A DNA stretch of 11,546 nt from a virus (Duplodnaviria > Heunggongvirae > Uroviricota > Caudoviricetes): positions 1 to 11,546 of IMG/VR virus record IMGVR_UViG_2713896901_000004; one strand, written 5' to 3'. The translations under genes and the position numbers were made by a program. Below the pieces are notes generated by a model. It was given only the letters and a program-made list of their open reading frames with translations, was not told where the DNA came from and ran no database searches. Below, piece after piece: positions 1 to 11,546 of this stretch. Position 1 is the first letter of the stretch, and every line of letters starts with the position of its first letter.

Positions 1-411
1 AAGCCCGCTTGCATTGATGACCATATCCACGGTGATGTTTTCATGTGTACCGAACCTGACAAGGACAGCAGCCCGCTTGTCGTCAGATAACTGATTAAAG
101 TTAACAATTTCTGCGTCAGGTTCAGGGGCGACCGGAACAAAGGAAGCCGACACCTCATTCCAGCGGTTTTCCTGCATATATTCGGAATCCCAGGAATCGA
201 GAGCAGGGCGGGCCATGCCGGGTTTATCCTCGCAGACAAGAAATTTATAAGCACAGTCCTGAGCTTCCGGGTATTGTTCCAGAAATAACCAGCTAAATTT
301 GGCTCTTGCCCGGCGTTCGTCGCCTGCTTCAATGGCAGTGGCCACAGGTTTAGCGCCTTCTGCTGTTGCCTGTTCGTCCGGAATGGCGGCGCAAATAAAG
401 ACTTTACTCAT
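1..411 (-). CDS. Hypothetical prophage protein, 3' end truncated by the window edge (137 codons visible)
   Basis: Open frame on the minus strand from ATG (plus 409-411) to the window start with no stop; GAGGT about 10 nt upstream of the ATG. It has no stop in the window, so it is absent from the ORF track. Translation starts MSKVFICAAIPDEQATAEGAKPVATAIEAGDERRARAKFSWLF. Sits where ydfE lies in the K-12 Qin dicB operon, but I do not recognise the sequence. Confidence 0.55.
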   Translation of the reverse strand, partial: MSKVFICAAIPDEQATAEGAKPVATAIEAGDERRARAKFSWLFLEQYPEAQDCAYKFLVCEDKPGMARPALDSWDSEYMQENRWNEVSASFVPVAPEPDAEIVNFNQLSDDKRAAVLVRFGTHENITVDMVINASGL

Positions 412-491
412 TTTGTTTTAACCTCATTACAGATTTAAGGGTGAACAAATCCCTGCCATTGCTGGCATATAAAAATGAAATCGGATATTAA

Positions 492-695
492 TTACGGTGC
501 TGTTTTAAGTCCTGCCGGGATTTCGTTATTGTCCATATGAATAACTTTATCGACCGGATAACAGTTACCGGGAATTTTTTGCTCTGCCGCGGCAGTCATG
601 CATTCTTCCATTGAGTCATGTATGTCAATAACAAGATCAATCGGTTCACCAGAAACAAAAAAAACAGTCAGAACGAGTACAAATGCCGTATTCAT
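492..695 (-). CDS. Small membrane protein with N-terminal hydrophobic segment, YdfD-like by position and size (67 aa)
   Basis: Preferred start MNTAFVLVLTVFFVSG: its ATG (plus 693-695) overlaps the stop of the upstream dicB-like gene (692-694) as ATGA on the minus strand, implying translational coupling. The track ORF 492..749 starts 18 codons earlier but without this coupling. Position after dicB matches ydfD in K-12 Qin (from memory). Confidence 0.5.
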   Translation of the reverse strand: MNTAFVLVLTVFFVSGEPIDLVIDIHDSMEECMTAAAEQKIPGNCYPVDKVIHMDNNEIPAGLKTAP

Positions 696-880
696 TGCCT
701 GCATCCTGTTTGCATCAGACGTAAACGGGCCAGCATCGAAACAATGCATATTTTATTTAGCAGTTCCTGTTCGTGTTTTCTTTTATTAATGGCATCTTCA
801 GTAAATATCTGATTGCTGATAGTGACACCAATTTCAAAACAACCTTCAGACGTATTAACGTTTGGTAATAACGTTTCCAT
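692..880 (-). CDS. dicB: DicB-like cell division inhibitor (62 aa)
   Basis: Internal start of track ORF 692..985, with GAGGA 7 nt upstream of the ATG (plus 878-880). Translation METLLPNVNTSEGCFEIGVTISNQIFTEDAINKRKHEQELLNKICIVSMLARLRLMQTGCRQ matches my recollection of E. coli DicB in length and most residues. Lies downstream of the dicF-like sRNA, as in Qin. Confidence 0.8.
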   Translation of the reverse strand: METLLPNVNTSEGCFEIGVTISNQIFTEDAINKRKHEQELLNKICIVSMLARLRLMQTGCRQ

Positions 881-1049
881 TATCGCGTCCTCAACAATGA
901 ATTTTGTGATGCGGTGCCTGGTGCCTCCAGGTGACGTTAACCAGTTAACAATTAACGCCGGATACAGAGAATCCACCCATAACACTGTTTTTAGCTTTAA
1001 CTGTTCCGCGTGCGCTTAGCCGCATTCACCGCATCACAAAATTCACTTT

Positions 1050-1105
1050 AAAAAGGGCGGACATCAGTTCATGGGCAAACAGATGCCGCCAAACGTCACC
1101 AGAAA
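1050..1105 (-). ncRNA. dicF: DicF-like Hfq-dependent sRNA
   Basis: Minus-strand sequence TTTCTGGTGACGTTTGGCGG... ends in a GC hairpin (GGCGG...CCGCC) followed by TTTTT. The 5' 20 nt match my memory of the K-12 DicF seed that targets ftsZ mRNA; the 3' hairpin differs. Located between ydfC and dicB as in Qin. Ends approximate. Confidence 0.7.
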
Positions 1106-1445
1106 ATTGATAACAGAGGGCGTTGCAGCGGGGTTGTCACTTAAGCGTATGGTCAACCTGACAACCCGGTGTCCTCAACGGGGAAGGAATAACCCCGCCA
1201 TACTTACCGCCGCGCCATTTCGCGGAGTGCCACAACCGGAAGCGCACGGTCGACGAAAATTTAACGACAGGCTATCTATGAACCAGCTACCTCGCCGTGC
1301 GCTTTCGCGTTATGGTCTGACTTTTCAGGGAAATATCCTTTCAGTAAACTGTCTGTGCCGGATGCTCACCCGTGTCCGGCGCACGCACTCCACCTCACCC
1401 GTGGAGAACTCCTTAATTACCAACCTTAGCTTCGTTGGTTAGCTA

Positions 1446-1664
1446 TTAACGCGGGTATGTAATCATTCTGGCAATGCTTAATGCCGCTGCTTTTTCCAGC
1501 CTGGTGATATCCTGCTCCAGAGCGGACAGATTTTCAGCCTGCTTATCCCTGGCTTCATTGGCCCATTTCAGATCCTGCGCTGCATTAATTTTCTGGCGCA
1601 TCCACTCATAAAGTTCATCATCGGTATAGTCTGGCGCGATGATGACGGGTTCTCGTTTCTGCAT
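1446..1664 (-). CDS. ydfC: YdfC-like small prophage protein (72 aa)
   Basis: Track ORF; GAGGA 6 nt upstream of the ATG (plus 1662-1664). Translation MQKREPVIIAPDYTDDELYEWMRQKINAAQDLKWANEARDKQAENLSALEQ; size and position match YdfC of the Qin dicB operon (recall). Confidence 0.65.
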   Translation of the reverse strand: MQKREPVIIAPDYTDDELYEWMRQKINAAQDLKWANEARDKQAENLSALEQDITRLEKAAALSIARMITYPR

Positions 1665-1693
1665 ACTGATTCCTCGCGGTGCTGCTTCGCTTA

Positions 1694-1822
1694 TCAGCCG
1701 TTAGATTTTGCCGAGCTGGAAAGCGCCTGTTTAAACTCACTGAAGCTGAGAGCTTCTTCGCCTTCGGCAAGGCCTTCGAAGTATTCTTCGTAAGCCTTTT
1801 CCATGATTGTGTCGAAATCCAT
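1694..1822 (-). CDS. ydfB: YdfB-like small protein (42 aa), below the ORF-track size cutoff
   Basis: Minus-strand ORF MDFDTIMEKAYEEYFEGLAEGEEALSFSEFKQALSSSAKSNG with AGGTGAG just upstream of the ATG (plus 1820-1822) and tandem stops (TGA TAA). Fills the gap between the ydfA-like and ydfC-like genes; size matches YdfB (recall). Confidence 0.65.
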   Translation of the reverse strand: MDFDTIMEKAYEEYFEGLAEGEEALSFSEFKQALSSSAKSNG

Positions 1823-1823
1823 A

Positions 1824-1979
1824 TCACTCACCTGAGTTTCTTTCCAGCCAGCGACGCGCGCCAGATTCGGTTTTAAACGTTTTGCTTTTGGTATACGTCA
1901 TCGCGGTGAACGTGCCGTCCTGGTTTGGGAACACGCCGCATACCAGAGATTCGTTGTTACCAAGATCGATAGTATCCAT
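1824..1979 (-). CDS. ydfA: YdfA-like small protein (51 aa, DUF1391-like)
   Basis: Internal start of track ORF 1824..2084: ATG (plus 1977-1979) preceded by GAGGT at 5-nt spacing. Translation MDTIDLGNNESLVCGVFPNQDGTFTAMTYTKSKTFKTESGARRWLERNSGE; a 51-aa product matches YdfA (recall). Confidence 0.7.
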   Translation of the reverse strand: MDTIDLGNNESLVCGVFPNQDGTFTAMTYTKSKTFKTESGARRWLERNSGE

Positions 1980-2055
1980 ATTGACCTCATTTCCCCTTAA
2001 CGCCGGGTAGCGGAACTGTTTGCTGAGAACACCGTGCGGTGTCTTGATGGGTGGT

Positions 2056-2084
2056 AATTTAGTTTTCTCATGAATGTTGGTCAA
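2056..2084 (-). promoter_or_regulatory. Candidate sigma70 promoter for the ydfA-ydfB-ydfC-dicF-dicB operon
   Basis: On the minus strand: TTGACC (plus 2079-2084), 17-nt spacer, TAAATT (plus 2056-2061). An inverted-repeat motif TGAGAAAACTCA (2095-2106) lies just upstream of the -35. Confidence 0.4.
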
Positions 2085-2168
2085 GTATTTTTAATGAGAA
2101 AACTCAATATTTAATGCAAAATAAAGCCAATACATTGAAATGTAAGGCTTTAAAATTTGTGAAGGGGG

Positions 2169-2576
2169 TTACTGATGTTTGTTACGTTTGCGAGCTTCTA
2201 GTAGCTCGGTGAATAGGCGATTAAAATTCTCAACGCGGGCACGGAGTTCGCTGATTTGTGCTTGCTGCTCTGATTTTGGAAGTGCGCGATACAATCGCAA
2301 CATCTCCAACTCATCTTCCGATAAGTCTAAGGCGCTGTTGAGTGCAACTGGTGGATCTGGTGTTTTATCCTCGTCACCAAACAGTATCCAAGTTGGTGAA
2401 CATTGCAATACCTCAGCCAGGCGATGCAAATTTTGCCCGCGCGGGGCTGTATGGTCGCTTTCCCATAGTGAAATTGATGAGCCAGATACGCCAGCGGCTT
2501 TGCTTAAATCGTTTTGACTTAAACCAACCTGTTTGCGTCTTTCTCTAATTCGTTGACCTAAAGTTTTCTCGTTCAT
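2169..2576 (-). CDS. dicA: DicA-like HTH (XRE-family) prophage repressor, 135 aa, no peptidase domain
   Basis: Track ORF. N-terminal HTH (QRIRERRKQVGLSQNDLSKAAGVSGSSISLWE) and the stretch VLQCSPTWILFGDEDK match my memory of E. coli K-12 DicA; same length (135 aa). Divergent from a Cro-like gene. Confidence 0.85.
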   Translation of the reverse strand: MNEKTLGQRIRERRKQVGLSQNDLSKAAGVSGSSISLWESDHTAPRGQNLHRLAEVLQCSPTWILFGDEDKTPDPPVALNSALDLSEDELEMLRLYRALPKSEQQAQISELRARVENFNRLFTELLEARKRNKHQ

Positions 2577-2653
2577 ATTTAGATATCTTAATAACCCTTG
2601 ACTTGAGATTCCTTGAGTGATTACTATTGAGAAAACTCAACTTTGGAGGGGTG
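2577..2653. promoter_or_regulatory. Divergent dicA/dicC intergenic control region with candidate rightward promoter and operator half-sites
   Basis: Rightward TTGACT (2598-2603), 18-nt spacer, TACTAT (2622-2627). Three TTGAG direct repeats and the inverted repeat TGAGAAAACTCA (2628-2639) overlap the -10 and start region. The same 12-mer recurs at 2095-2106. Confidence 0.5.
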
Positions 2654-2881
2654 ATGTTTAAATCAGACGTAATTAATTTTTATGGGACGAAAGCCAAAGT
2701 AGCGAAAGCTGCTGGTGTTGATCCATCTGCTGTTTCTCAATGGGGGGAACTGGTTCCTGAAGGTCGCGCGATGCGCCTGCAAGAGGCGTCCGGCGGGGAA
2801 CTTCAGTACGACCCCAAAGTTTATGACGAATATCGTAAGGCAAAGCGGGCGGGGCGGTTGAACAATGAAAATCACCCCTGA
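2654..2881 (+). CDS. dicC: Cro/DicC-like small DNA-binding protein (75 aa)
   Basis: ATG at 2654 with GGAGG 4 nt upstream; the track ORF begins at an upstream TTG (2627). Translation MFKSDVINFYGTKAKVAKAAGVDPSAVSQWGELVPEGRAMRLQEASGGELQYDPKVY resembles DicC/YdaS-type Cro-like proteins (recall). Divergent from dicA. Confidence 0.75.
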   Translation: MFKSDVINFYGTKAKVAKAAGVDPSAVSQWGELVPEGRAMRLQEASGGELQYDPKVYDEYRKAKRAGRLNNENHP

Positions 2882-3416
2882 ACAGGTTTGTGAGGCTCTG
2901 GATGCCTGGGTATGTCGACCAGGAATGACACAGGAGCAGGCGACGATATTAATCACGGAAGCATTCTGGGCTCTGAAAGAACGCCCGAACATCGATGTTC
3001 AACGCGTCACGTTTAATGATGGCGAGGTTGATCAACGGGCGCTGGGCGTTAACCGGGTGAAGATATTCGAACGCTGGAAAGCTATCGACACCAGGGATAA
3101 GCGGGAAAAATTCACGGCGCTGATTCCGGCAATTATGGAGGCTATCCGGATCAGCGATTTCAGGTTGTATTGTGAAATTACTGACGGAAAAAGCATTACG
3201 TACATGATCGCCGGGTTAAACAAAGAATATGGCGATGTGGTGGAGTCCGGGCTGCTTTTTGCGGATCCATCTGTTGTGGAACGTGAGACTGACGAGCTTA
3301 TAGAAAAAGCTATTGCTTTCAAGCATGCGTATCGTCAGCAATATCAATATTACTTTGCAGATAAACAAATGTCTGCCAGGGGTTCGTATGAGTATCGATG
3401 CACTACGATGGGCTAA
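2865..3416 (+). CDS. YdaT-like prophage protein occupying the CII position (183 aa)
   Basis: Track ORF; its start overlaps the end of the Cro-like gene by 17 nt. The motif REKFTALIPAIMEAI resembles YdaT-family proteins that follow Cro-like genes in Rac-type prophages (recall, unverified). Confidence 0.55.
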   Translation: MKITPEQVCEALDAWVCRPGMTQEQATILITEAFWALKERPNIDVQRVTFNDGEVDQRALGVNRVKIFERWKAIDTRDKREKFTALIPAIMEAIRISDFRLYCEITDGKSITYMIAGLNKEYGDVVESGLLFADPSVVERETDELIEKAIAFKHAYRQQYQYYFADKQMSARGSYEYRCTTMG

Positions 3417-4428
3417 AAAGGTGAAAACCGGCAGTTCATCCAGTAAGTCTGTATTGACCTGGCTTGCTGATATGTGCGGTGCCGATTTGTGTGCATACCC
3501 GTCTGTATCTGCACTGGCAGAAGTAACGGAACTGAACAAAAAGACTGTGCAGGACAGCTTACGACACCTGATGGAGATTGGGTTAATTGTTGATACCGGT
3601 GAGAGAAAAGGCAGAACAAAGCAAATTGTGGTGTACCGACTTATCGGTGTAGAAGAAAGTGTTGCCGAGCCTGAATACACCCAAAAACGGGAGTCTTTAA
3701 AGGTGGGTAAAATTGGTGCTGTTAATAAAAACAGTACCGAAAATGGTTATGTTTCAGCACAAAACAGACCCAAAAACGGAACTCTTAGCTGCATGGAAAA
3801 TAACCAAAGACACCCAAATTTTCCATCAAAGACACCCAAAAACGGATCACGGAACCCAAAGGAACCCAAAGATCTAAACCCCACACATAACGCACGCGAG
3901 AGTGCTCCGACCAGTGAGCAGGAAGTTTTATCGTTACAGGCAGCACCCCTTGTATTCCTGGATGGCCTGAGCGAACCCATCGGAAAATTTCCGATGACCG
4001 ATAGCTGGTATCCGTCACGGGATTTTCGACGACGGGCTGCGTTGTGGGGGATGGCTTTGCCGGAGACAGAATTTACACCTGCTGAACTTGCCGCCTTCCG
4101 GGACTACTGGGCAGCGGAGGGGAAAGTGTTTACGCAGATTCAGTGGGAGCAGAAATTCGCCCGTCACGTAAATCACGTCAGGGCGCAGGTTAAACCAGTC
4201 AGCAAGGGGGTAAGCCATGCAGCAGCACCAGGTAGTACCGCATCACGGGCAGTTCAGGAAATTCGGGCCGCACGTGAGCAGTGGGAACGTGAAAACGGAT
4301 TTATCAGCGACGGAAACGGCGTGGAAGTTGTGGGAGCTCATGGGGGAGGTTTATTCAAACCGCTGGACTCAGAAGAACGGGGCCGCACCTTCGACGCTCT
4401 GGATTGCACAGATTGGCGCGATGACTGA
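3388..4428 (+). CDS. Replication initiator candidate: N-terminal winged-helix domain, low-complexity linker, C-terminal DnaT-like domain (346 aa from the chosen start)
   Basis: Track ORF 3313..4428 starts at a TTG; I prefer ATG 3388 (MSIDALRWAKKVKTG...), which overlaps the upstream gene's 3' end. The linker coding region holds ACCCAAA iterons (3768-3870). Domain assignment is from pattern recall. Confidence 0.6.
   Translation: MSIDALRWAKKVKTGSSSSKSVLTWLADMCGADLCAYPSVSALAEVTELNKKTVQDSLRHLMEIGLIVDTGERKGRTKQIVVYRLIGVEESVAEPEYTQKRESLKVGKIGAVNKNSTENGYVSAQNRPKNGTLSCMENNQRHPNFPSKTPKNGSRNPKEPKDLNPTHNARESAPTSEQEVLSLQAAPLVFLDGLSEPIGKFPMTDSWYPSRDFRRRAALWGMALPETEFTPAELAAFRDYWAAEGKVFTQIQWEQKFARHVNHVRAQVKPVSKGVSHAAAPGSTASRAVQEIRAAREQWERENGFISDGNGVEVVGAHGGGLFKPLDSEERGRTFDALDCTDWRDD
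3760..3875. repeat. Iteron-like direct repeats (ACCCAAA core, 5 copies) inside the initiator gene; candidate replication origin
   Basis: ACCCAAA at 3768, 3812, 3834, 3854 and 3864. CAAAGACACCCAAA is exact at 3805-3818 and 3827-3840; ACCCAAAAACGGA is exact at 3768-3780 and 3834-3846; GGAACCCAAA is tandem at 3851-3870. Moderately AT-rich flank at 3715-3765. Resembles ori-lambda inside gene O. Confidence 0.45.
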
Positions 4429-4882
4429 GCAGCAAATCCGGCAGGTCTGCCGCCAGTGCATGGACCGCTGCCGGGCGGGTGAAACATGGCCCCCGGACCT
4501 GGCTGAGTTTGTGGCGCTGATTTCGGAAAGCGGGGCCAACCCATTTGGTCTGACTGTGGATGCCGTGATGGAAGAATACCGCCGCTGGCGCAATGAGTCA
4601 TGGCGATACGACGGAAGCGATAAATATCCGTGGTCACAGCCCGTGCTGTATCACATTTGCCTCGAGATGCGTTCAAAGGGGATTGAACGCCAGATGACCG
4701 AAGGGGAATTAAAACGGTTTGCAGAACGGCAGCTGACGAAATGGGCAAAGCATGTTAGTAACGGCCTGAGCGTTCCGCCAGTACGGCGACAACTGGCGGC
4801 ACCAAAACGCCCGTTGGGACCAACGCCAATTGAGTTGCTGAAACAGGAGTATGAACGCCGGAAAGCGGCTGGTTTTGTCTGA
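4421..4882 (+). CDS. Replication P-family (helicase-loader-like) protein candidate (153 aa)
   Basis: ATG 4421 overlaps the initiator stop (4426-4428) as ATGACTGA, implying coupling; the track ORF 4217..4882 starts earlier inside the initiator gene. Family call rests on position after the initiator and on recall; no Walker A motif, so not DnaC-like. Confidence 0.45.
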
Positions 4883-4916
4883 TTTGAGAAGTAATTTTTA
4901 CCGGGAGGAAATTTTA

Positions 4917-5678
4917 ATGGAAACCGTTTTTGATGCACTGAAAGCAATGGGAAAAGCCACGTCGGTAGAACTGGCTACGCGACTTGATATCAGTCGTGAA
5001 GAAGTGCTGAACGAGCTGTGGGAACTGAAAAAGGCTGGCTTCGTTGATAAAAGCGTATACACCTGGCGTGTGGCTTATAACAACGTTCAGCAGGAACAGC
5101 CAGCGCCGGCAGAACTGCCGGAAGAAACCACCACGGCAACAGTCGCTAAAATTTCGGAGAACGATTTAACTGCGACGATTGAACAACGTGGACCACAAAC
5201 GGCGGATGAACTGGCTACGCTGTTCGGTACCACATCCCGCAAAGTGGCTTCAACGCTGGCAATGGCAATCAGCAAAGGTCGTCTGATTCGTGTAAACCAG
5301 AACGGTAAATTTCGTTACTGCATACCGGGTGATAATTTACCAGCAGAGCCGAAAGTTGAATCGGTAGCGGAAACCGATGGTAAAGCCTTTCCTCAGCCAG
5401 CAGGTGTTGCGTTACCAGTACAGGAAGCTGCAACACAGGAAGATATTAAAACAGGAACTGTGGCTGATATTGTGCAATCGTTGCCATCGTTTACTGAAAC
5501 GCGAGCGGATGACCTGGTTTTACCATCGCTGCATATGGCAAACCGCGAATTGCGTCGGGCGAAAAGTCATGTCCAGAAGTGGGAGCGAGTCTGCGCCGCG
5601 CTGCGGGAGCTGAACAAGCACCGGGATATTGTTCGACAGATTACTGATTCTTCTCGCTGTGTTGCATCGGAAAAGTGA
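4917..5678 (+). CDS. Hypothetical protein with two tandem winged-helix-like segments (253 aa)
   Basis: ATG 4917 has GGAGG 8 nt upstream; the track ORF starts at 4851. Two similar segments (about residues 1-60 and 95-150) each look like a wHTH: ...[28 protein letters not shown]... and ...[30 protein letters not shown].... Confidence 0.6.
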
Positions 5679-5693
5679 TTGCCGGAGGCGCTT

Positions 5694-6185
5694 ATGGCAA
5701 AAGTATTTACACAAGAAGAGCGGGAAAAAATCAAGGGGCAGGTTGTTGAACTCGTGCGCCAGAGTGGGCGCGAGACGTTACGACAACTGGAAGCCAAGAC
5801 AGGTGCGACAAGATATCTGATGAGCATTCTCGCCAGAGAGCTGGTTGCCAGTGGTGATGTATACAACTCTGGCTACGGGTTATTCCCGTCTGAACAGGCC
5901 CGTAAGGACTGGCAAAACGCCCGCAAAAAACTATCCAGGGCTAAGGTGAAAAAAACGGTTGTGGTTGATCCTGACCTTATCTGGTCATTACCAGACGGAG
6001 AAATACGCCGCTACGACAGGCGTCAAAACATAATCTGTAGCGAGTGCCGGAAGAGCGAAGTTATGCAGCGCGTGCTGGCGTTTTATCAAGGAGGTGGCGC
6101 TGTGAGTGAAATTAGCTATCAGGCTTCAATTGCCGCTGGCATTCGCATCAAAGGAGAGGAGCATGGAAATAAAACCAGAAGATGA
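5694..6185 (+). CDS. Hypothetical prophage protein (163 aa)
   Basis: ATG 5694 with GGAGG upstream; the track ORF begins at 5679. No family recognised. Its 3' end overlaps the next gene by 23 nt. Confidence 0.55.
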   Translation: MAKVFTQEEREKIKGQVVELVRQSGRETLRQLEAKTGATRYLMSILARELVASGDVYNSGYGLFPSEQARKDWQNARKKLSRAKVKKTVVVDPDLIWSLPDGEIRRYDRRQNIICSECRKSEVMQRVLAFYQGGGAVSEISYQASIAAGIRIKGEEHGNKTRR

Positions 6186-6519
6186 GTTAAGTAATATTGT
6201 TTTATTTCCGGTAAAAGAGGATGACCCACGTAATCAGGTTAATTTTCTTTATGAGCCATCGAAAAGACCATATTGTCATCACGCCTCTGTCCGTGTTGAC
6301 GAAAAAGAGCGTCAGGTCCGCTGTAAAATCTGCGGTGCAGTTGTGGAGCCATTTGACTGGATGCTCTCTGTGGCGAAAAGAGAAACCAGACTGGCAGATG
6401 ATGTAAGGCTCTTGCGCCAGGAGGAACGGGAAAGGCGGAGAAATATAGAAAAGCTAATTCAGATTGAGCGTAACGCGAAAGCGCGGATACGCAGGGCGGC
6501 AAAATCAAGAACTGAATAA
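6163..6519 (+). CDS. Hypothetical protein with a Cys/His cluster and a basic coiled-coil-like tail (118 aa)
   Basis: ATG 6163 (MEIKPEDEL...) with GGAGAGGAG upstream; the track ORF starts at 6106. Motif C-H-H...C-x2-C (YCHHASVRVDEKERQVRCKICG), then an R/E-rich C-terminus. Confidence 0.5.
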   Translation: MEIKPEDELSNIVLFPVKEDDPRNQVNFLYEPSKRPYCHHASVRVDEKERQVRCKICGAVVEPFDWMLSVAKRETRLADDVRLLRQEERERRRNIEKLIQIERNAKARIRRAAKSRTE

Positions 6520-6612
6520 TTAAATTTAGCACTGTTAAAAATTTAATCCTTAACCGGAGGGATTTCTGCACCCTCAGAACATCAGGAGGCCGTTCGAAAT
6601 GGCGGTAGTGAA

Positions 6613-6795
6613 ATGCGAAAATTCAAAATAATTATTGAAACGGGAATAGCTGGTGGAGATTTTGAGGATGTATTCGAAGTAGATGATGACGCAACACCTG
6701 ATGAAATTCATGACGAAGCAAAAGAAATTTTCTTTAACTACTGCAATTACTCATATCACGAAATAAAAGGCGAGGAGGAAGAACAAAATGGCTGA
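6613..6795 (+). CDS. Small, strongly acidic hypothetical protein (60 aa)
   Basis: Track ORF; 18 of 60 residues are D/E, with a terminal EEEEQ run. No good SD directly upstream; instead AGGAGG (6584-6589) serves a 10-codon ORF (6599-6631) that overlaps this start out of frame. Confidence 0.4.
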   Translation: MRKFKIIIETGIAGGDFEDVFEVDDDATPDEIHDEAKEIFFNYCNYSYHEIKGEEEEQNG

Positions 6796-6964
6796 TTTTG
6801 GTTCAACTAAATACAACGTCAGTTTTGAAGAATGGCATGAACTGTTAATGGATTATGCAGAGTTACGTGGTGGAAGTGCTGCTGATGCTGAAGCCTGGCG
6901 TGATGACTACGAAGCAGGAAAAACACCTGTCGAAGCATATTGTGATGAGTGGGGCGATGAATGA
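6788..6964 (+). CDS. Small, strongly acidic hypothetical protein (58 aa), below the ORF-track cutoff
   Basis: ATG 6788 preceded by GAGGAGGAA. Translation MADFGSTKYNVSFEEWHELLMDYAELRGGSAADAEAWRDDYEAGKTPVEAYCDEWGDE. Its stop overlaps the next gene's start as ATGA (6961-6964), and its start overlaps the end of the previous acidic ORF. Confidence 0.5.
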   Translation: MADFGSTKYNVSFEEWHELLMDYAELRGGSAADAEAWRDDYEAGKTPVEAYCDEWGDE

Positions 6965-7476
6965 GCGAGATTAATTATCAGGAAGGGCATGAAACGGCAG
7001 GGCAGGCAAAACCAGTTGCATGGCGATATCGCTACGTGAAAAAAGGCGTTACGGACTTTCAGGAGAATCTGTGGGTTGGTGACTGGAAATATGTACCGAC
7101 AAAAGAGGATTGCAACGACAGGCCGAACTATGAAATTCAGGCCTTATTCGCTGCCCCGCCAGTTCCGGTGACATCAGAAGGACTGGTTAAAGCCGTGCGC
7201 TTTTATGAACAGGTAAAGCGTGAGAATCCACCAGTCGAAACAGGAGTATGGAAAGATGCTGTTGATTGGGTTCTCAAAGAGGCCTGCTGTGCTGTCATTC
7301 TGGGTAAAGCCGACAATCCATTAGCATCCAGTAACCAAGTTGGCGAATTAACAATGTGGGTTAAACGACTGGTCAGTCAACTGAAAAAAGCTAATCCAGA
7401 CTGCAAATTACCGGAGAAGGCGATGGACTACCTGAAGCGGAACGAACTGATAAGCGCGGAGGATGTTTTGCGATGA
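6961..7476 (+). CDS. Hypothetical prophage protein (171 aa)
   Basis: Track ORF, translationally coupled to the upstream small ORF. No family recognised. Confidence 0.55.
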   Translation: MSEINYQEGHETAGQAKPVAWRYRYVKKGVTDFQENLWVGDWKYVPTKEDCNDRPNYEIQALFAAPPVPVTSEGLVKAVRFYEQVKRENPPVETGVWKDAVDWVLKEACCAVILGKADNPLASSNQVGELTMWVKRLVSQLKKANPDCKLPEKAMDYLKRNELISAEDVLR

Positions 7477-7556
7477 CCTGGCCTGAAGCATTCACAACGG
7501 TAGGAATTGCAATAGCGGTGGCGCTGGTGGTGTATTCGATTTGCCACTGGATGTGA
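7473..7556 (+). CDS. Possible 27-aa single-pass membrane peptide
   Basis: ATG 7473 overlaps the stop of the 171-aa gene (ATGA). Translation MTWPEAFTTVGIAIAVALVVYSICHWM is mostly one hydrophobic helix. Not in the ORF track; very short, so low confidence. Confidence 0.3.
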   Translation: MTWPEAFTTVGIAIAVALVVYSICHWM

Positions 7557-7717
7557 GGTATTAAAAAACGCCCCGCACACAGACGTTGAGCGCCTGAGAT
7601 GTGGGGATAGGGAGTTAGTTAAATAGTTATACAACAATACCTGATTTTATATTGAAGCAAGAAATAGGTTGCTACATATTGAACCATGCGCGTGTACGTC
7701 AAATATGGGAGGTCATC

Positions 7718-7807
7718 GTGCTGGTTCTGAAATGTGCGCTGGCTATTGCGGCAGTAATGGCAATTTATTGTCTTGTTATCGTTCTTATGAATCACCTCTC
7801 TGATTGA
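7718..7807 (+). CDS. Possible 29-aa hydrophobic peptide with GTG start and strong SD
   Basis: GGGAGG (7707-7712), 5-nt spacer, GTG 7718. Translation (M)LVLKCALAIAAVMAIYCLVIVLMNHLSD. A candidate promoter TTGAAG-17-CATATT lies at about 7652-7680. Sits just upstream of the hok locus. Not in the ORF track. Confidence 0.3.
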   Translation: MLVLKCALAIAAVMAIYCLVIVLMNHLSD

Positions 7808-7814
7808 TTTTATA

Positions 7815-7843
7815 TTGGCGAGGTGACGTGAGTTAAGTAGAAT
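7815..7843 (+). promoter_or_regulatory. Candidate promoter of the hok/mok mRNA
   Basis: TTGGCG (7815-7820), 17-nt spacer, TAGAAT (7838-7843). The predicted start near 7850 precedes GGGTGCTTGAGGCTATCTGCCTC, which resembles the 5' end of plasmid R1 hok mRNA (recall). Confidence 0.45.
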
Positions 7844-7961
7844 TGCTGCGGGTGCTTGAGGCTATCTGCCTCGGGCATGAACACCAACGGCAGATAGAGA
7901 AAAGCCCCAGTTAACATTACGCGTCCTGCAAGACGTTTAACATTAATCTGAGGCCCAATCT

Positions 7962-8174
7962 ATGCTTCACAAACGTAGGTTAGCCTCTTACGTGCCGAAA
8001 GGCAAGGAGAAGCAGGCTATGAAGCAGCAAAAGGCGATGTTAATCGCCCTGATCGTCATCTGTTTAACCGTCATAGTGACGGCACTGGTAACGAGGAAAG
8101 ACCTCTGCGAGGTACGAATCCGAACCGGCCAGACGGAGGTCGCTGTCTTCACAGCTTACGAACCTGAGGAGTAA
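7962..8174 (+). CDS. mok: Mok-like reading frame: in-frame N-terminal extension of hok (70 aa)
   Basis: Track ORF; ATG 7962 with GAGG 8 nt upstream. It shares frame and stop with hok, as mokC does with hokC in E. coli K-12 (recall). Confidence 0.55.
   Translation: MLHKRRLASYVPKGKEKQAMKQQKAMLIALIVICLTVIVTALVTRKDLCEVRIRTGQTEVAVFTAYEPEE
8019..8174 (+). CDS. hok: Hok/Gef-family type I toxin (51 aa)
   Basis: ATG 8019 with AAGGAGA 8 nt upstream. Translation MKQQKAMLIALIVICLTVIVTALVTRKDLCEVRIRTGQTEVAVFTAYEPEE is a canonical Hok sequence, closest in my memory to HokD/RelF. Confidence 0.85.
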   Translation: MKQQKAMLIALIVICLTVIVTALVTRKDLCEVRIRTGQTEVAVFTAYEPEE

Positions 8175-8242
8175 GAGACCAGGCGGGGGAGAAATCCCTC
8201 GCCACCTCTGATGTGTCAGGCATCCTCAACGCACCCGCACTT

Positions 8243-8270
8243 AACCCGCTTCGGCGGGTTTTTGTTTTTA
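8243..8270 (+). terminator. Rho-independent terminator at the end of the hok mRNA
   Basis: CCCGC-TTCG-GCGGG hairpin (8245-8258) followed by TTTTTGTTTTT. Confidence 0.65.
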
Positions 8271-8282
8271 TTTTCAACGCGT

Positions 8283-8312
8283 TTGAAGTTTTAGATTGTG
8301 CCGGAATAGAAT
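8283..8312 (+). promoter_or_regulatory. Candidate sigma70 promoter for the downstream 86-aa gene
   Basis: TTGAAG (8283-8288), 18-nt spacer, TAGAAT (8307-8312). Confidence 0.35.
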
Positions 8313-8394
8313 CAAAAATACTTAAGTAGCGCGCAGGGAGAAGAGGGATGGACCCCGAACAGGGGAGTGCTATTTATCTGGAAGGATTCTGTTG

Positions 8395-8655
8395 ATGAAA
8401 ATCGAAGAATTACGTGAAATTTTTAGTGAAGATGGCCTCTATACTGTGCGCGTTGAGAATGGCGCTATTGTCAGCCACTGCCGTATTAAATGTTTACAGT
8501 CTCAACAAAGGAAGAGTGGAGCTGCGTTAATTCATTTTGTGGATGGGCTTGTGACGGATGGTTTTATTTTGCGTGCAAATGAATTTGTCACATCGTTGCC
8601 GTCTCTGAAAGAAGCTGGGATTAAGGCTGGTTTTTCTGCTTTTGAAGATGAGTGA
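8395..8655 (+). CDS. Hypothetical small prophage protein (86 aa); may correspond to rem of Qin by position
   Basis: ATG 8395; the track ORF starts at TTG 8392. AGGA about 9 nt upstream. Lies between hok and the DUF968 gene, where rem lies in K-12 Qin (recall); sequence identity not verified. Confidence 0.45.
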   Translation: MKIEELREIFSEDGLYTVRVENGAIVSHCRIKCLQSQQRKSGAALIHFVDGLVTDGFILRANEFVTSLPSLKEAGIKAGFSAFEDE

Positions 8656-8721
8656 ATTCATCTACAATTCAGCGCAGGGCTGAACCCCTGTTGAGTAACA
8701 CTGTGCCACCGGAGAAAGCCG

Positions 8722-9000
8722 ATGGCGCAAAATTCCAGACTACACAATTCTGATAATTCAGCCGTCTTTGCCAGCAGGCACGGGCGGCGTTCTCATGCAT
8801 TCAAATCTGACTGGTTCCAGCACGCCCCATGCACTGAAGAACAGGCCGAATGGCTGATTCAGAACTACCGCAGACGTGGGTATGAGTTTAGGAAAGCCCT
8901 CAGCCTCGATTATCGTCACTGGATAATCTCCGTCAGGCTTCCTTACTCTGAACGCCCACCGCGTCCGTCCCGCACATTCCAGCAACGCATCTGGAGGTAA
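8722..9000 (+). CDS. Hypothetical protein (92 aa), uncertain
   Basis: Track ORF with GGAG 8-11 nt upstream. Arg/Trp-rich composition and no recognisable family; could be a real small gene or a remnant. Confidence 0.3.
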   Translation: MAQNSRLHNSDNSAVFASRHGRRSHAFKSDWFQHAPCTEEQAEWLIQNYRRRGYEFRKALSLDYRHWIISVRLPYSERPPRPSRTFQQRIWR

Positions 9001-9010
9001 CCGGGTACTG

Positions 9011-9997
9011 GTGGAGCCGGAACCGAAAAGCATGCGTAATCTGCCGTCCGGGGTCGTTCCTGCCGTTCGCCAGCCGCTGGCGGAGGATAAATCATTACTG
9101 CCATTTTTCAGCGACGAACGAGTGATTCGTGCTGCTGGTGGCGCTGGCGCATTGTCTGACTGGTTACTGCGCCATGTTAAATCCTGCCAGTGGCCACACG
9201 GCGATTATCACCACAGTGAAACCGTCATTCACCGTTATGGTACCGGCGCAATGGTGTTGTGCTGGCACTGCGACAACCAGCTGCGTGACCAGGCATCCGA
9301 ATCACTCGAGCAACTTGCTCATCAAAACCTGTCAGCATGGATGATTAACGTCATCGGTCACGCAATAAGCGGTACGCAGGAGCGTGAATTATCTCTGGCT
9401 GAATTATCCTGGTGGGCGGTCCGCAATCAGGTGGCGGACGCGCTACCGGAAGCGGTATTACGTCGTTCGCTGGGGTTGCGTGCGGAAAAAATCCGCTCAA
9501 TGTACCGTGAAAGCGACATCGTACCGGGAGAGCAGACCGCCACCAGCATACTGAAGCAGCGCACAAAAAATCTTGCGCCGCTGCCTCACGCCCACCAGCA
9601 AAACCCGCCACAGGAAGAGGCGGTGGTCAGCAAAACCCCGCCACAGGAAGAGGCGGTGGTCAGCATTGCCGTTGATCCGGAGTCACCGGCTCAGTATCTC
9701 CAGCGCCAGAAACCACAACGGGAAGAGATGCCTGTATACACGCGCTGGGTAAAAACGCAGAAATGCATGACGTGCGGTAATCAGGCAGATGATCCGCATC
9801 ACATCATTGGTCATGGACTGGGAGGGATGGGAACAAAGGCTGATGATTTGTTTGTTATTCCGCTGTGCCGTAAATGCCATAGCGAACTACACGCCGGGGT
9901 AAAAGATTTTGAAGAAAAACACGGCAGCCAGCTGTTGTTGCTGATTCGTTTTTTAATGCACGCGAGAAATTCGGGTGTCCTGAAGTGGAAAGCATGA
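9011..9997 (+). CDS. ydfU: DUF968/YdfU-like protein with C-terminal Cys/His (HNH-like) motif (328 aa)
   Basis: Track ORF with GTG start at 9011; an alternative ATG is at 9032. C-terminal CMTCGNQADDPHHIIGHG...PLCRKCHSELH is a Cys-x2-Cys...His-His...Cys-x2-Cys-His arrangement typical of DUF968 proteins (recall). Contains a tandem 30-bp duplication (PPQEEAVVS twice). Confidence 0.65.
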   Translation: MEPEPKSMRNLPSGVVPAVRQPLAEDKSLLPFFSDERVIRAAGGAGALSDWLLRHVKSCQWPHGDYHHSETVIHRYGTGAMVLCWHCDNQLRDQASESLEQLAHQNLSAWMINVIGHAISGTQERELSLAELSWWAVRNQVADALPEAVLRRSLGLRAEKIRSMYRESDIVPGEQTATSILKQRTKNLAPLPHAHQQNPPQEEAVVSKTPPQEEAVVSIAVDPESPAQYLQRQKPQREEMPVYTRWVKTQKCMTCGNQADDPHHIIGHGLGGMGTKADDLFVIPLCRKCHSELHAGVKDFEEKHGSQLLLLIRFLMHARNSGVLKWKA

Positions 9998-10363
9998 ATG
10001 ACTGAACGCATAGAATTTGTTTTGCCTTACCCGCCGACGGTGAATACCTACTGGCGACGTCATGGCAATACGTATTTCATCTCGGAGGCCGGAAAGCGTT
10101 ATCGCCATGATGTGGCGCTAATTGTTCGCCAGCAGCGGTTGAAATTAAACCTGTCCGGAAGGCTGGCGATAAAGATTATTGCAGAGCCATCGGATAAGCG
10201 CCGTCGTGACCTGGACAATATCCTGAAAGCACCACTGGATGCGCCGACGCATGCCGGACTACTCATAGACGACGAGCAGTTTGATGAAATCAATATTGTG
10301 CGCGGTCAGCTCGTTCCTGGTGGGCGGCTGGGGATAAAAATCACAGAATTGGAGTGCGCATGA
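9998..10363 (+). CDS. rusA: RusA Holliday-junction resolvase (121 aa)
   Basis: Track ORF; its ATG abuts the upstream stop. Translation MTERIEFVLPYPPTVNTYWRRHGN...RRRDLDNILKAPLDA...GGRLGIKITE matches the RusA family pattern, including the catalytic RRRDLDN region (recall of E. coli RusA). Confidence 0.85.
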   Translation: MTERIEFVLPYPPTVNTYWRRHGNTYFISEAGKRYRHDVALIVRQQRLKLNLSGRLAIKIIAEPSDKRRRDLDNILKAPLDAPTHAGLLIDDEQFDEINIVRGQLVPGGRLGIKITELECA

Positions 10364-11049
10364 ATAACCAGTATTTACAGTTTGTGCGTGAGCAGCTCAT
10401 TATCGCCACCGCTGATTTGAGTGGGGCAACAAAAGGTCAGCTTGAAGCCTGTCAGGAGAATGCCATGTTCGATACAGGGCGTTACAGGCGAAAAAAAATC
10501 CGGTACCGCGATGAAGTGACTGGAAAAATGATAACGCGGGATAATCCACCAATCCCGGGAAAACAATCACTGGCGAATGGCTCATCAATTGCCCTGGTCA
10601 GCCCGGTTGAGTTTTCGACATCATCATGGCGGCGGGCTTTGCTGTCTCTTGAAGAGCATCATAAAGCCTGGTTGTTGTGGTGTTACGGCGAGAGTATTTG
10701 TTGGGAATATCAGATCGCGATAACACAGTGGGCGTGGAATGAATTTAATACTCAATCCGGTACCAGAAAAATTGCAGGGAAAACGCAGGAACGCCTGAAA
10801 AAATTAATCTGGCTGGCGGCGCAGGCAGTAAAAGCAGAACTTTTTGGTGGGGAAGGTTATGAATACCAGGAGCTGGCATTACTGGCGGGAGTGACAACTA
10901 AAAACTGGTCCAAAACATTTACTCGTCACTGGGTTGCAATGAAACACATTTTTCACCGACTTGATAGTGAGGCTTTATTGTTTGTAATGAGAACACGTTC
11001 AAAACAAAAGGCGGCATTTTCAAAGCAAAGTGTTGCAAAAGTAGATTGA
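10360..11049 (+). CDS. Late-gene antiterminator Q candidate (229 aa)
   Basis: ATG 10360 overlaps the rusA stop (ATGA) with GGAG 5 nt upstream; the track ORF begins at GTG 10354. Call rests on position (after rusA, before a PR'-like promoter, a short-transcript terminator and a tRNA cluster) plus partial recall of Q-family proteins. Confidence 0.55.
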   Translation: MNNQYLQFVREQLIIATADLSGATKGQLEACQENAMFDTGRYRRKKIRYRDEVTGKMITRDNPPIPGKQSLANGSSIALVSPVEFSTSSWRRALLSLEEHHKAWLLWCYGESICWEYQIAITQWAWNEFNTQSGTRKIAGKTQERLKKLIWLAAQAVKAELFGGEGYEYQELALLAGVTTKNWSKTFTRHWVAMKHIFHRLDSEALLFVMRTRSKQKAAFSKQSVAKVD

Positions 11050-11061
11050 AAGGCATATATT
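11033..11061 (+). promoter_or_regulatory. PR'-like late promoter candidate
   Basis: TTGCAA (11033-11038), 17-nt spacer, TATATT (11056-11061), overlapping the 3' end of the Q-like gene. Predicted start near 11068; a terminator follows about 45-70 nt downstream, as with lambda PR'/tR'. Confidence 0.45.
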
Positions 11062-11112
11062 TCATGCAAATCTGATATTTTGCCGATTTTGTACGTGATG
11101 GCAAAAGCAAAC

Positions 11113-11141
11113 AAAACCCGCCCACAAGCGGGTTTTGTTTG
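11113..11141 (+). terminator. tR'-like rho-independent terminator
   Basis: AACCCGC-CCACAA-GCGGGTT hairpin (11115-11134) followed by TTGTTTG. Confidence 0.6.
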
Positions 11142-11258
11142 CCACTTATCTCGGATAGACATGGTGAATGCGCTGGTGGAGGAGGTAAGGGTAATTTTTA
11201 ATCAGGTGATTCTTGAATGCTTGCAACATTTATTTCGTAACGTTATTATCCTGCGCCC

Positions 11259-11334
11259 GGCCCTTTAGCTCAGTGGTGAGAGCGAGCGACTCATAATCGC
11301 CAGGTCGCTGGTTCAAATCCAGCAAGGGCCACCA
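11259..11334 (+). tRNA. tRNA-Ile2-like, anticodon CAU (lysidine type), 76 nt
   Basis: Cloverleaf folded by hand: acceptor GGCCCTT/AAGGGCC, D-arm GCTC...GAGC, anticodon loop CTCATAA, T-loop TTCAAAT, 3' CCA. Closely resembles my memory of E. coli ileX. Met versus Ile2 cannot be decided from sequence alone. Confidence 0.8.
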
Positions 11335-11335
11335 A

Positions 11336-11412
11336 CCGTCAGCAGTTCATCAGGAAAGAGCGTCAACCCTTTAAGTTGAGTGTGCGAGGTTCGAGTCCCC
11401 GGTGGCGGTCCA
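11336..11412 (+). tRNA. tRNA-like gene with noncanonical features; anticodon loop reads CCUUUAA (UUU, Lys-type by position), identity uncertain
   Basis: Hand fold: acceptor 6 of 7 pairs (one G.U, one G/G mismatch), D-stem GTTC/GAGC with one G.U, perfect anticodon stem TCAAC/GTTGA, T-arm CGAGG-TTCGAGT-CCCCG with one A/C mismatch, 3' UCCA. Position 8 is C and position 33 is C, both atypical. Confidence 0.45.
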
Positions 11413-11414
11413 GT

Positions 11415-11490
<76 letters not shown>

Positions 11491-11493
11491 TAT

Positions 11494-11546
<53 letters not shown>

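Follow-up and report, generated by a model that had tools for sequence, protein, structure and literature searches.

An 11,546-nt stretch of viral DNA (IMG/VR record IMGVR_UViG_2713896901_000004, positions 1 to 11,546; herein referred to as the window) raises the question of what two very small and strongly acidic proteins, encoded by overlapping genes among the early genes of a prophage, do for the element that carries them, and how their translation is arranged. This window corresponds to the early-right operon of a lambdoid prophage of the Qin/Rac type from Escherichia coli, and the two genes, herein P1 and P2, are already catalogued (P1 as DUF7167 and PHROG 1997, P2 as PHROG 519) but uncharacterised, RefSeq labelling their products "DUF7167 family protein" and "hypothetical protein", respectively. 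An original prediction, made from the letters of the window, had proposed that both are DNA mimics of the Ocr or ArdA kind and that a 10-codon upstream open reading frame (uORF) governs P1; the open reading frames (ORFs), their 8-nt overlap, the uORF and the Shine-Dalgarno (SD) boxes all lie where it had placed them. We find that P1 and P2 are conserved genes that travel independently of one another, and we tentatively propose that each acts as an acidic decoy of a host protein. The distribution of P2 over phages and plasmids, the coupling signal in its 5' end and a natural series of P1 leader alleles are the new facts presented here.

Conservation, charge and mobility of P1 and P2

P1 and P2 are real genes under purifying selection, as judged from the low ratio of nonsynonymous to synonymous polymorphism (pN/pS) in frame (0.086 for P1 and 0.108 for P2 across 87 aligned loci, against 0.8-4.4 in the other frames overall and 1.4-4.4 for P1) and from the predominance of intact copies (81/87 for P1 and 79/87 for P2). 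The disruption in related prophages that the original prediction had named as grounds for abandoning its proposal is thus not seen in intact phages. In decayed Qin remnants flanked by insertion sequence elements both ORFs do carry internal stops, and their disruption in such cryptic remnants fits a function that serves the phage and not the host.

The acidity of the two proteins is likewise conserved and agrees with what had been read from the sequence (28-30% Asp/Glu and a net charge of roughly -12 each). P1 contains 7 Asp and 11 Glu residues (30.0%), with a net charge of -13 and an isoelectric point (pI) of 4.11; P2 is 27.6% Asp/Glu, with a net charge of -12 and a pI of 4.05. As a background we collected 1,250 distinct ORFs of 50-70 amino acids from the six reading frames of some 225 related loci, which have a mean net charge of +3.4 (standard deviation 5.7). 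A net charge of -10 or below is rare among them (63/1,250) and 60 of those 63 are relatives of P1 or P2, so that nucleotide composition by itself does not account for the acidity; among the 16 genes of the operon, only P1 and P2 fall below -4. The charge is kept across both families, at -10 to -16 in 26/26 P1 relatives (down to 48% identity) and between -4 and -14 in 30 P2 relatives (median -11). In each family the invariant positions belong to the hydrophobic or aromatic core or cap a helix (as does the invariant N-cap DDAT-x-x-E of P1), and the acidic positions conserve charge and vary in residue identity. We found no catalytic, metal-binding, membrane or signal motifs in either protein.

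P1 is a full-length member of DUF7167 (PF23768), matching the Pfam profile with E = 4.4e-14 and 52.8 bits, above the gathering cutoff of 24.4, with residues 2-52 aligned to profile positions 1-59 of 60; its match to phrog_1997 has E = 3.6e-30. We set its start at MRKF because this N-terminus is invariant across the family; variants of 87-93 amino acids proved to be gene-caller extensions upstream through the leader, in alleles that lack an in-frame stop. Profile searches recover more distant relatives, about 50% identical, from Klebsiella, Citrobacter and Pseudomonas (the gene context of the Pseudomonas relative being uninformative), and P1 occurs in only 17 cultured-phage records and 15 plasmid records; a scan of the genome collection returned only 4 loci. 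AlphaFold2 confidently predicts a β-hairpin plus helix (mean predicted local distance difference test score, pLDDT, 88.2; strands at residues 2-8 and 17-23, helix at 29-43) followed by a floppy acidic tail. Similar predicted folds occur in uncharacterised proteins of ~57 amino acids from phage phAPEC8, Lactococcus phage 949 and a Streptomyces phage. Our literature search found no papers that mention DUF7167, and to the family as catalogued we add its conserved charge, its confident predicted fold, its genomic habits and its leader structure.

Two database records that carry P1 have unexpected host labels. PP818812.1 ("Actinobacillus phage vB_Apl-pPE4", recorded host Actinobacillus pleuropneumoniae) bears an E. 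coli-type cassette at ~95% nucleotide identity together with hok and Ead/Ea22 genes, and its host assignment looks doubtful. JAIHTM010000290.1, a 3-kb contig from a metagenome-assembled genome labelled "Collinsella sp." (Actinomycetota), carries P1 (93% identical) and a P2-family hit and is most likely a mis-binned fragment of an Enterobacteriaceae prophage.

No Pfam family includes P2, which aligns with the C-terminal half of phrog_519 (E = 4.5e-23). A search of 1.84 billion representative proteins returned 65 clusters at E <= 1e-3, nearly all of them stand-alone proteins of 50-65 amino acids; matches within giant proteins were set aside as repeat-domain noise. The family motif is F-x-x-W ... 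GGSAADADAWRxDYxAGKTPxEAWxDEWG, with F13, W16, L20, W37, Y41, G44 and P47 near-invariant, and AlphaFold2 confidently predicts a three-helix bundle (pLDDT 87.8; helices at residues 13-27, 34-42 and 47-55). P2 is far more widespread than P1. Both genes lie in early accessory regions of phages, and P2 extends further: it is present in 198 phage records, including those of strictly lytic, ~157-kb Ackermannviridae (Det7, PhiSH19, Ag3 and 0507-KN2-1), and in 554 plasmid records, 516 of them conjugative and including IncI2, IncT and IncU plasmids. An apparent P2-DUF551 "fusion" in phiSTEC1575-Stx2k proved to be an intergenic 3' remnant of P2. Sharing between phages and plasmids is a distribution described for anti-defence genes (e.g., PMC7648647), and the spread of P2 over temperate phages, lytic phages and conjugative plasmids is circumstantially consistent with that pattern.

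A 411-nt module spanning the cassette is matched in 2,154/5,426 complete E. coli genomes (~40%), and 1,746 of these matches extend over at least 80% of its length. In all 89 loci with the E. coli cassette P1 and P2 lie side by side, and 12 different upstream contexts precede them; the 300 nt downstream fall into one dominant cluster, which in 116/134 contexts is the 5' part of the next gene, P3, and this part of P3 therefore travels with the cassette. In the Shiga toxin (Stx) phage ArgO145 the pair occupies the early-left arm, between Ead/Ea22-like genes. Beyond the cassette the two genes part company. All 11 of the divergent P1 loci are without P2, and in Klebsiella and Citrobacter phages P1 stands directly after an Ead/Ea22-like or other gene and before a DUF551 gene (a gene of 59 codons 3' of P1 in Citrobacter is not a relative of P2 by hidden Markov model comparison). 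The Enterobacter relative of P2 occurs without P1, directly after an Ead/Ea22-like gene and sometimes in the early-left arm next to xis/int. Since the DNA homology between IncI2 plasmids and the window is, in addition, confined to the P2 ORF, P1 and P2 are two independent single-domain accessory proteins, here co-transcribed with early genes, and we reject an obligate two-component system because each is found alone in distant elements. In this window P1, P2 and the next gene are translationally linked.

Translation signals of P1 and P2

P1 is preceded by a 93-nt intergenic leader in which an AGGAGG box lies 23 nt from the P1 start (the box ends at 6589, the ATG begins at 6613) and 9 nt from the uORF ATG at 6599; its predicted duplex with the anti-SD sequence has an energy of -10.3 kcal/mol, and AGGAGG or AGGAGA is kept in 83/87 related loci. 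The majority leader reads AGGAG-GCCGCCC-GAAA-GGGCGGU-AGUGAA-AUG, with a 7-bp GC stem and a GAAA loop, and folding out this 18-nt hairpin reduces the distance between AGGAG and AUG from 23 to 6 nt. The majority hairpin has a folding energy of -14.4 kcal/mol and its 41-nt context one of -16.9 kcal/mol (z = -3.7; 0/200 shuffles as stable), and a hairpin of -9 kcal/mol or stronger is present in 61/81 loci, with weaker ones in 20/81. Where the sequence further upstream changes, AGGAGG and the hairpin stay with P1; in distant relatives, by contrast, P1 follows the preceding gene directly and there is no leader. A second hairpin, further upstream (6557-6575), is present in both the minimum free energy and the centroid folds of 6520-6640.

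This arrangement resembles the split ribosome-binding sites of phage T4, in which structure cuts the spacing between SD and AUG from 22 to 5 nt (gene 38) or from 27 to 11 nt (gene 25) and so enhances initiation (PMC3014915). As in T4, the P1 SD lies at least 20 nt from the start (23 nt, compared with 22 and 27) and in the majority allele the predicted hairpin would leave a short spacer (6 nt, compared with 5 and 11); the P1 leader differs in that the 3' arm of its hairpin is itself SD-like and in that the hairpin is degraded in the window allele. By this analogy the leader of the majority alleles is probably a split ribosome-binding site, from which P1 would be translated as the hairpin brings AGGAG to within 6 nt of the AUG, and the retention of AGGAGG suggests that a hairpin-bridged site explains it better than coupling to a uORF does.

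The same hairpin could instead repress P1, because its 3' arm is the SD-like sequence GGCGGT (6601-6606). This sequence matches GGAGGT at 5/6 positions, forms an anti-SD duplex of -6.1 kcal/mol in the window and -7.8 kcal/mol in the majority allele, and is retained even where the upstream sequence, AGGAGG included, has been replaced. The claim that P1 lacks an SD of its own was accordingly overstated, since GGCGGT stands 6 nt before its ATG with a duplex energy on par with that of the P2 SD in most relatives (-6.0 kcal/mol). As a negative element, the hairpin would sequester this proximal SD at its ideal 6-nt spacing, P1 would be translated upon opening and AGGAG would serve as a standby site at most, standby sites being a documented mechanism (PMC3936740 and PMC7708055). 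However, AGGAG is conserved immediately 5' of the stem in the exact geometry of the T4 gene 38 split site, and alleles with weakened hairpins, that of the window among them, persist without obvious loss of P1. We regard sequestration as somewhat unlikely, with the two readings of the hairpin close to evenly matched.

Two further observations count against the split-site reading. A covariation test over 21 haplotypes was null, with every measure at the shuffle mean, and pairing is lost in roughly one half of the stem mutations, which is what neutrality predicts; in the alignment, which consists of very closely related sequences, 92.5% of cells are paired and a single double-sided change is seen. 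A G-C to A-T stem variant that had looked compensatory was dropped as support in light of the null test. An Rfam scan of the whole window returned no family at the P1 leader, the absence of a T-run on either strand rules out an intrinsic terminator, and nothing supports a boxB/nut-like role, which we considered for the GAAA loop only. To our knowledge hairpin-bridged split ribosome-binding sites are documented only for T4 genes 38 and 25, and the strong-hairpin, intermediate and uORF alleles of P1 provide a natural series with which to study split-site initiation outside T4.

The uORF itself is confined to a minority of these alleles. The window leader, GCCGUUC-GAAA-UGGCGGU, differs from the majority by two C-to-U changes, which preserve G·U pairs, and one G-to-U change, which breaks the closing pair and makes the AUG; its hairpin has an energy of -6.2 kcal/mol and its 41-nt context one of -7.8 kcal/mol (z = -0.5), and an intermediate allele with a single change (GCCGUCC) is common. 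The uORF ATG is present in 13/87 related loci and, by pattern scan, in 11/76 distinct contexts, the others having AGG or AAG, and this is no more than chance would produce because the ATG requires one G-to-T change. On these sequences the uORF most plausibly arose incidentally, through hairpin mutation in a minority lineage, in which two C-to-T changes and one G-to-T change would have weakened the hairpin and created the ATG.

The original prediction had instead taken the uORF for a translational control element and had called for its conservation to be checked. Ribosomes recruited at AGGAGG would translate MAVVKCENSK, stop 16 nt past the P1 AUG and then re-initiate at, or unmask, P1. The strength of the box, its 9-nt spacer and the extension of the uORF across the P1 start speak for this idea, as does the recurrence of the allele in 11-13 loci with two peptide variants. 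Yet the ATG is absent from about 85% of related alleles, the intermediate GCCGTCC exists, the G-to-T change that makes the ATG at the same time costs a conserved hairpin its closing pair, distant P1 relatives abut the upstream gene without any leader, and the peptide has no conserved homologues. We consider control by the uORF highly improbable.

The junction between P1 and P2 is of a different kind. Here the description of an SD belonging to P2 itself and an 8-nt overlap with P1 holds: the AGGAGG box, with its 9-nt spacer, forms an anti-SD duplex of -11.8 kcal/mol in the window, compared with -6.0 kcal/mol for the majority allele, AGAGGA. The first P2 codons, ATG-GCT-GAT, contain within codons 2-3 the TGA that ends the upstream gene, and the same 8-nt overlap follows unrelated genes, namely P1 (ending NG-stop), a DUF1187 gene of an IncI2 plasmid (YG-stop) and a gene for a membrane protein of an IncU plasmid (HG-stop); it lies at 6788-6795 in the window, at 1756-1763 in locus L226 (IncI2 plasmid pPC11) and at 9001-9008 in locus L227. 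Because the stop codon of the upstream gene is built into the 5' end of P2, P2 appears to be habitually coupled in translation to its upstream neighbour, and this 5' end may be regarded as a portable translational-coupling junction.

The plasmid copies illustrate this portability. IncI2 plasmids of the mcr-1 type carry a P2 that is 88% identical (WP_000753050.1) in the gene order CaiF/GrlA-type regulator, DUF1187, P2, SPFH, NfeD and type IV secretion system (L226, 1049-3729), and at the DNA level they resemble the window over the P2 ORF and nowhere else (85% over 173 nt from the ATG). The P2 homologue of pPC11 is found at ~58 kb, where the transfer operon begins, and mobC and the relaxase gene lie at ~17-21 kb. 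This block at the head of the transfer operon, with its phage-type acidic mini-protein, is fixed in about 410 plasmids. We found no papers that mention DUF1187.

Candidate functions of the two acidic families

We hypothesize that P1 and P2 are each a small stoichiometric binder whose acidic surface would occupy the basic nucleic acid-binding surface of a host protein, such as a nuclease of a defence system or a protein of the nucleoid, of repair or of transcription, and that blocking this target would help the mobile element to become established or to grow lytically. Such a role as an acidic decoy is our leading but tentative reading, which we hold to be somewhat short of an even chance. The acidity, early position and mobile-element spread of the two proteins are compatible with an acidic inhibitor or nucleic acid mimic. 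Like Ocr, ArdA, T7 gp5.9, phi29 p56, Ugi, T7 Gp2 and SPO1 Gp44, they are small, have a pI of about 4 and are 28-30% acidic, and they further share with these inhibitors a surface charge conserved over sequence, early expression and carriage by mobile elements; the resemblance is compositional only, with no similarity in sequence or fold (the properties of the named inhibitors are background, in part from PMC9836394 and PMC8208478). If P1 and P2 are acidic decoys they would join a known kind of inhibitor, and they are reasonable candidates rather than a surprise.

A number of results count against this proposal. Acidic composition alone is a weak predictor of function, and a monomer of 58-60 amino acids could mimic only a short stretch of DNA. 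Neither the PADLOC profiles (no match for P1, P2 or P3 at E <= 0.1) nor NCBIfam returned a match. The passages searched of the accessory-gene screen of Silas et al. and of a paper modelling the exo-xis region contain no matching proteins. Anti-defence genes of plasmids concentrate in the leading region; the IncI2 P2 lies outside it, about 19 kb from oriT, mobC and the relaxase gene in the one plasmid type mapped. The neighbours of P2 in IncU, IncT (Rts1-like) and Enterobacter plasmids are uncharacterised and uninformative.

The more specific proposal, that P1 and/or P2 are DNA mimics that block type I restriction-modification (and bacteriophage exclusion, BREX) in the manner of Ocr or ArdA, fares considerably worse. 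Its basis in composition stands: both proteins are 28-30% acidic with a pI of about 4, a value that Silas et al. cite for Ocr and ArdA, and their acidity is conserved across families; the early operon and the presence of P2 in both phages and conjugative plasmids also suit it. Kinship with Ocr or ArdA, however, is not borne out. Pfam gave no Ocr or ArdA match at E <= 0.1, a family-profile search of Protein Data Bank (PDB) chains at E <= 10 returned nothing meaningful for P1 or P2, the P1 and P2 models gave no fold match to solved inhibitors, and Ocr, ArdA, Gam, gp5.9, Ugi and p56 are absent from the structure and sequence search results. Ocr (~116 amino acids) and ArdA (~166 amino acids) both form elongated dimers, each a mimic of over 20 bp of DNA. 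The predicted folds (a β-hairpin plus helix and a three-helix bundle) and sizes (58-60 amino acids) of P1 and P2 fit neither the elongated, all-helical dimer of T7 gp0.3 (Ocr), which mimics ~24 bp of bent DNA, nor the three-domain fold of ArdA, each being a single small domain; and ardA-type genes sit in the leading region next to oriT, whereas P2 in pPC11 lies elsewhere. We therefore judge an anti-restriction function of this type to be very unlikely.

The two proteins might, alternatively, be acidic partners or modulators of the element's own, mostly basic proteins (Ead/Ea22- or DUF551-type proteins, or the CaiF/GrlA-type regulator in IncI2), tuning the choice between lysis and lysogeny or the expression of transfer genes. 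In keeping with this, Ead/Ea22-like genes repeatedly stand immediately before P1 and before P2, with DUF551 genes following, P2 is always coupled in translation to the preceding gene, the IncI2 P2 lies near the CaiF/GrlA-type regulator where the transfer operon begins and the upstream neighbours in the window are basic (pI 9.7-9.8). There is also precedent for such an effect in the exo-xis region, small proteins of which influence the lysogenic-lytic decision (PMC8614690). The lambda exo-xis and Ead/Ea22 proteins (Orf60a, Orf61, Orf63, Orf73 and Ea22) are likewise small, early and non-essential proteins of lambdoid and Stx phages, and the P1-P2 pair of ArgO145 occupies this position in the early-left arm; the pair in this window is in the early-right operon, and there is no homology to the exo-xis proteins, a PDB profile search that covered Ea8.5 and the C-terminal domain of Ea22 having found nothing. 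Moreover, the upstream partner varies (12 contexts for the E. coli cassette and three unrelated genes for P2), no co-variation with any single neighbour is seen, and P2 is also carried by Ackermannviridae, which are strictly lytic and so have no lysogeny decision to make. A role in the element's own biology is, in our assessment, unlikely, though considerably less so than Ocr- or ArdA-type anti-restriction.

Returning to the decoy hypothesis, its fullest form would be that P2 is a new family of acidic inhibitors, spread over temperate lambdoid and Stx phages, lytic Ackermannviridae and IncI2, IncT and IncU plasmids, that neutralises a widespread host barrier of nucleic acid-binding nature (for example a nuclease of a restriction or other defence system, or H-NS as a xenogeneic silencer), with P1 as a second, independent family of this kind whose cassette has a portable split ribosome-binding site. 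We consider this conjunction unlikely to hold in all its parts. If the decoy reading is true, P1 and P2 would represent two new anti-defence or host-takeover families, and a shared target would be a barrier that phage infection and conjugation both face. Carriers of one family include about 40% of complete E. coli genomes, Stx-converting phages, lytic Ackermannviridae of the type used in therapy and the IncI2 plasmids that spread mcr-1. Regardless of that reading, two false leads, uORF control and kinship to Ocr or ArdA, are removed, and P1 and P2 are testable candidates with defined leader alleles.

The surrounding operon

The coordinates of the cassette and its leader are collected in table 1. 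The gene order of the window runs from dicA (minus strand) through dicC, a YdaT-like gene and O/P-like replication genes to DUF1627, DUF977 (Ren-like) and a zinc-ribbon protein, then P1, P2 and P3, and after P3 continues with sok/hokD, DUF968-HNH, RusA, Q and tRNAs. We found no promoter- or terminator-like sites at 6500-6650, and since none adjoins the cassette we read it as part of the early transcript.

Table 1. Positions of P1, P2 and associated features in the window.
Feature	Position	Strand	Description
P1	6613-6795	+	60 amino acids, acidic; Pfam DUF7167 / phrog_1997
P2	6788-6964	+	58 amino acids, acidic; predicted three-helix bundle; without Pfam family
P1/P2 overlap	6788-6795	+	8 nt, ATGGCTGA; conserved in all aligned loci
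P3	6961-7476	+	171 amino acids, phrog_660; ATGA start-stop overlap with P2
Leader hairpin 1	6557-6575	+	GAGGG (6557-6561) : CCCTC (6571-6575), 9-nt loop
AGGAGG SD box	6584-6589	+	Read from sequence
Leader hairpin 2	6589-6606	+	Between SD box and P1 start
uORF MAVVKCENSK	6599-6631	+	10 codons, out of frame across the first 6 codons of P1
GGCGGT partial SD	6601-6606	+	6 nt 5' of P1 ATG; 3' arm of hairpin
P2 SD AGGAGG	6773-6778	+	9 nt 5' of P2 ATG; within the acidic tail codons of P1

The zinc-ribbon gene immediately 5' of the cassette (6106-6519) is listed with a GTG start at 6106 and a product of 137 amino acids; its RefSeq homologues have 118 amino acids (357 nt), which fits an internal ATG start (MEIKPEDEL...). 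The protein has a pI of 9.7 and a C-x2-C ... C-x2-C ribbon with weak similarity to the TFIIB zinc ribbon (E = 2e-4).

On the other side of the cassette, the window contains a complete type I toxin-antitoxin locus of the hok/sok type (7850-8174), in which the sok antisense RNA (7850-8024; Rfam RF01794, 113 bits, E = 1e-25) overlaps the start of a Hok-family ORF (7962-8174); RefSeq annotates hokD at the equivalent place of a near-identical locus. In the dicB-side arm, a match to a DicF-like antisense small RNA (1055-1104, minus strand) scores 43.5 bits, slightly below the gathering score of 48, and adjoins an STnc100-like match (848-1057, minus strand; 39 bits against a cutoff of 47); both are consistent with a Qin-type immunity region. 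The DUF968/HNH gene contains a 33-nt tandem duplication (9596-9665; 2.2 copies, 97% match) that repeats the peptide PPQEEAVVS(K/I). Finally, a tRNA cluster lies 3' of the Q antiterminator gene (11259-11546), in which ARAGORN identifies tRNA-Met (CAT) at 11259-11334 and tRNA-Thr (TGT) at 11415-11490, with two further matches from Rfam, a truncated tRNA at 11494-11546 and a weak one at 11336-11409; the near-identical RefSeq locus has Ile, Lys, Thr and Gly tRNAs in a similar place, behind an insertion of three minus-strand genes.

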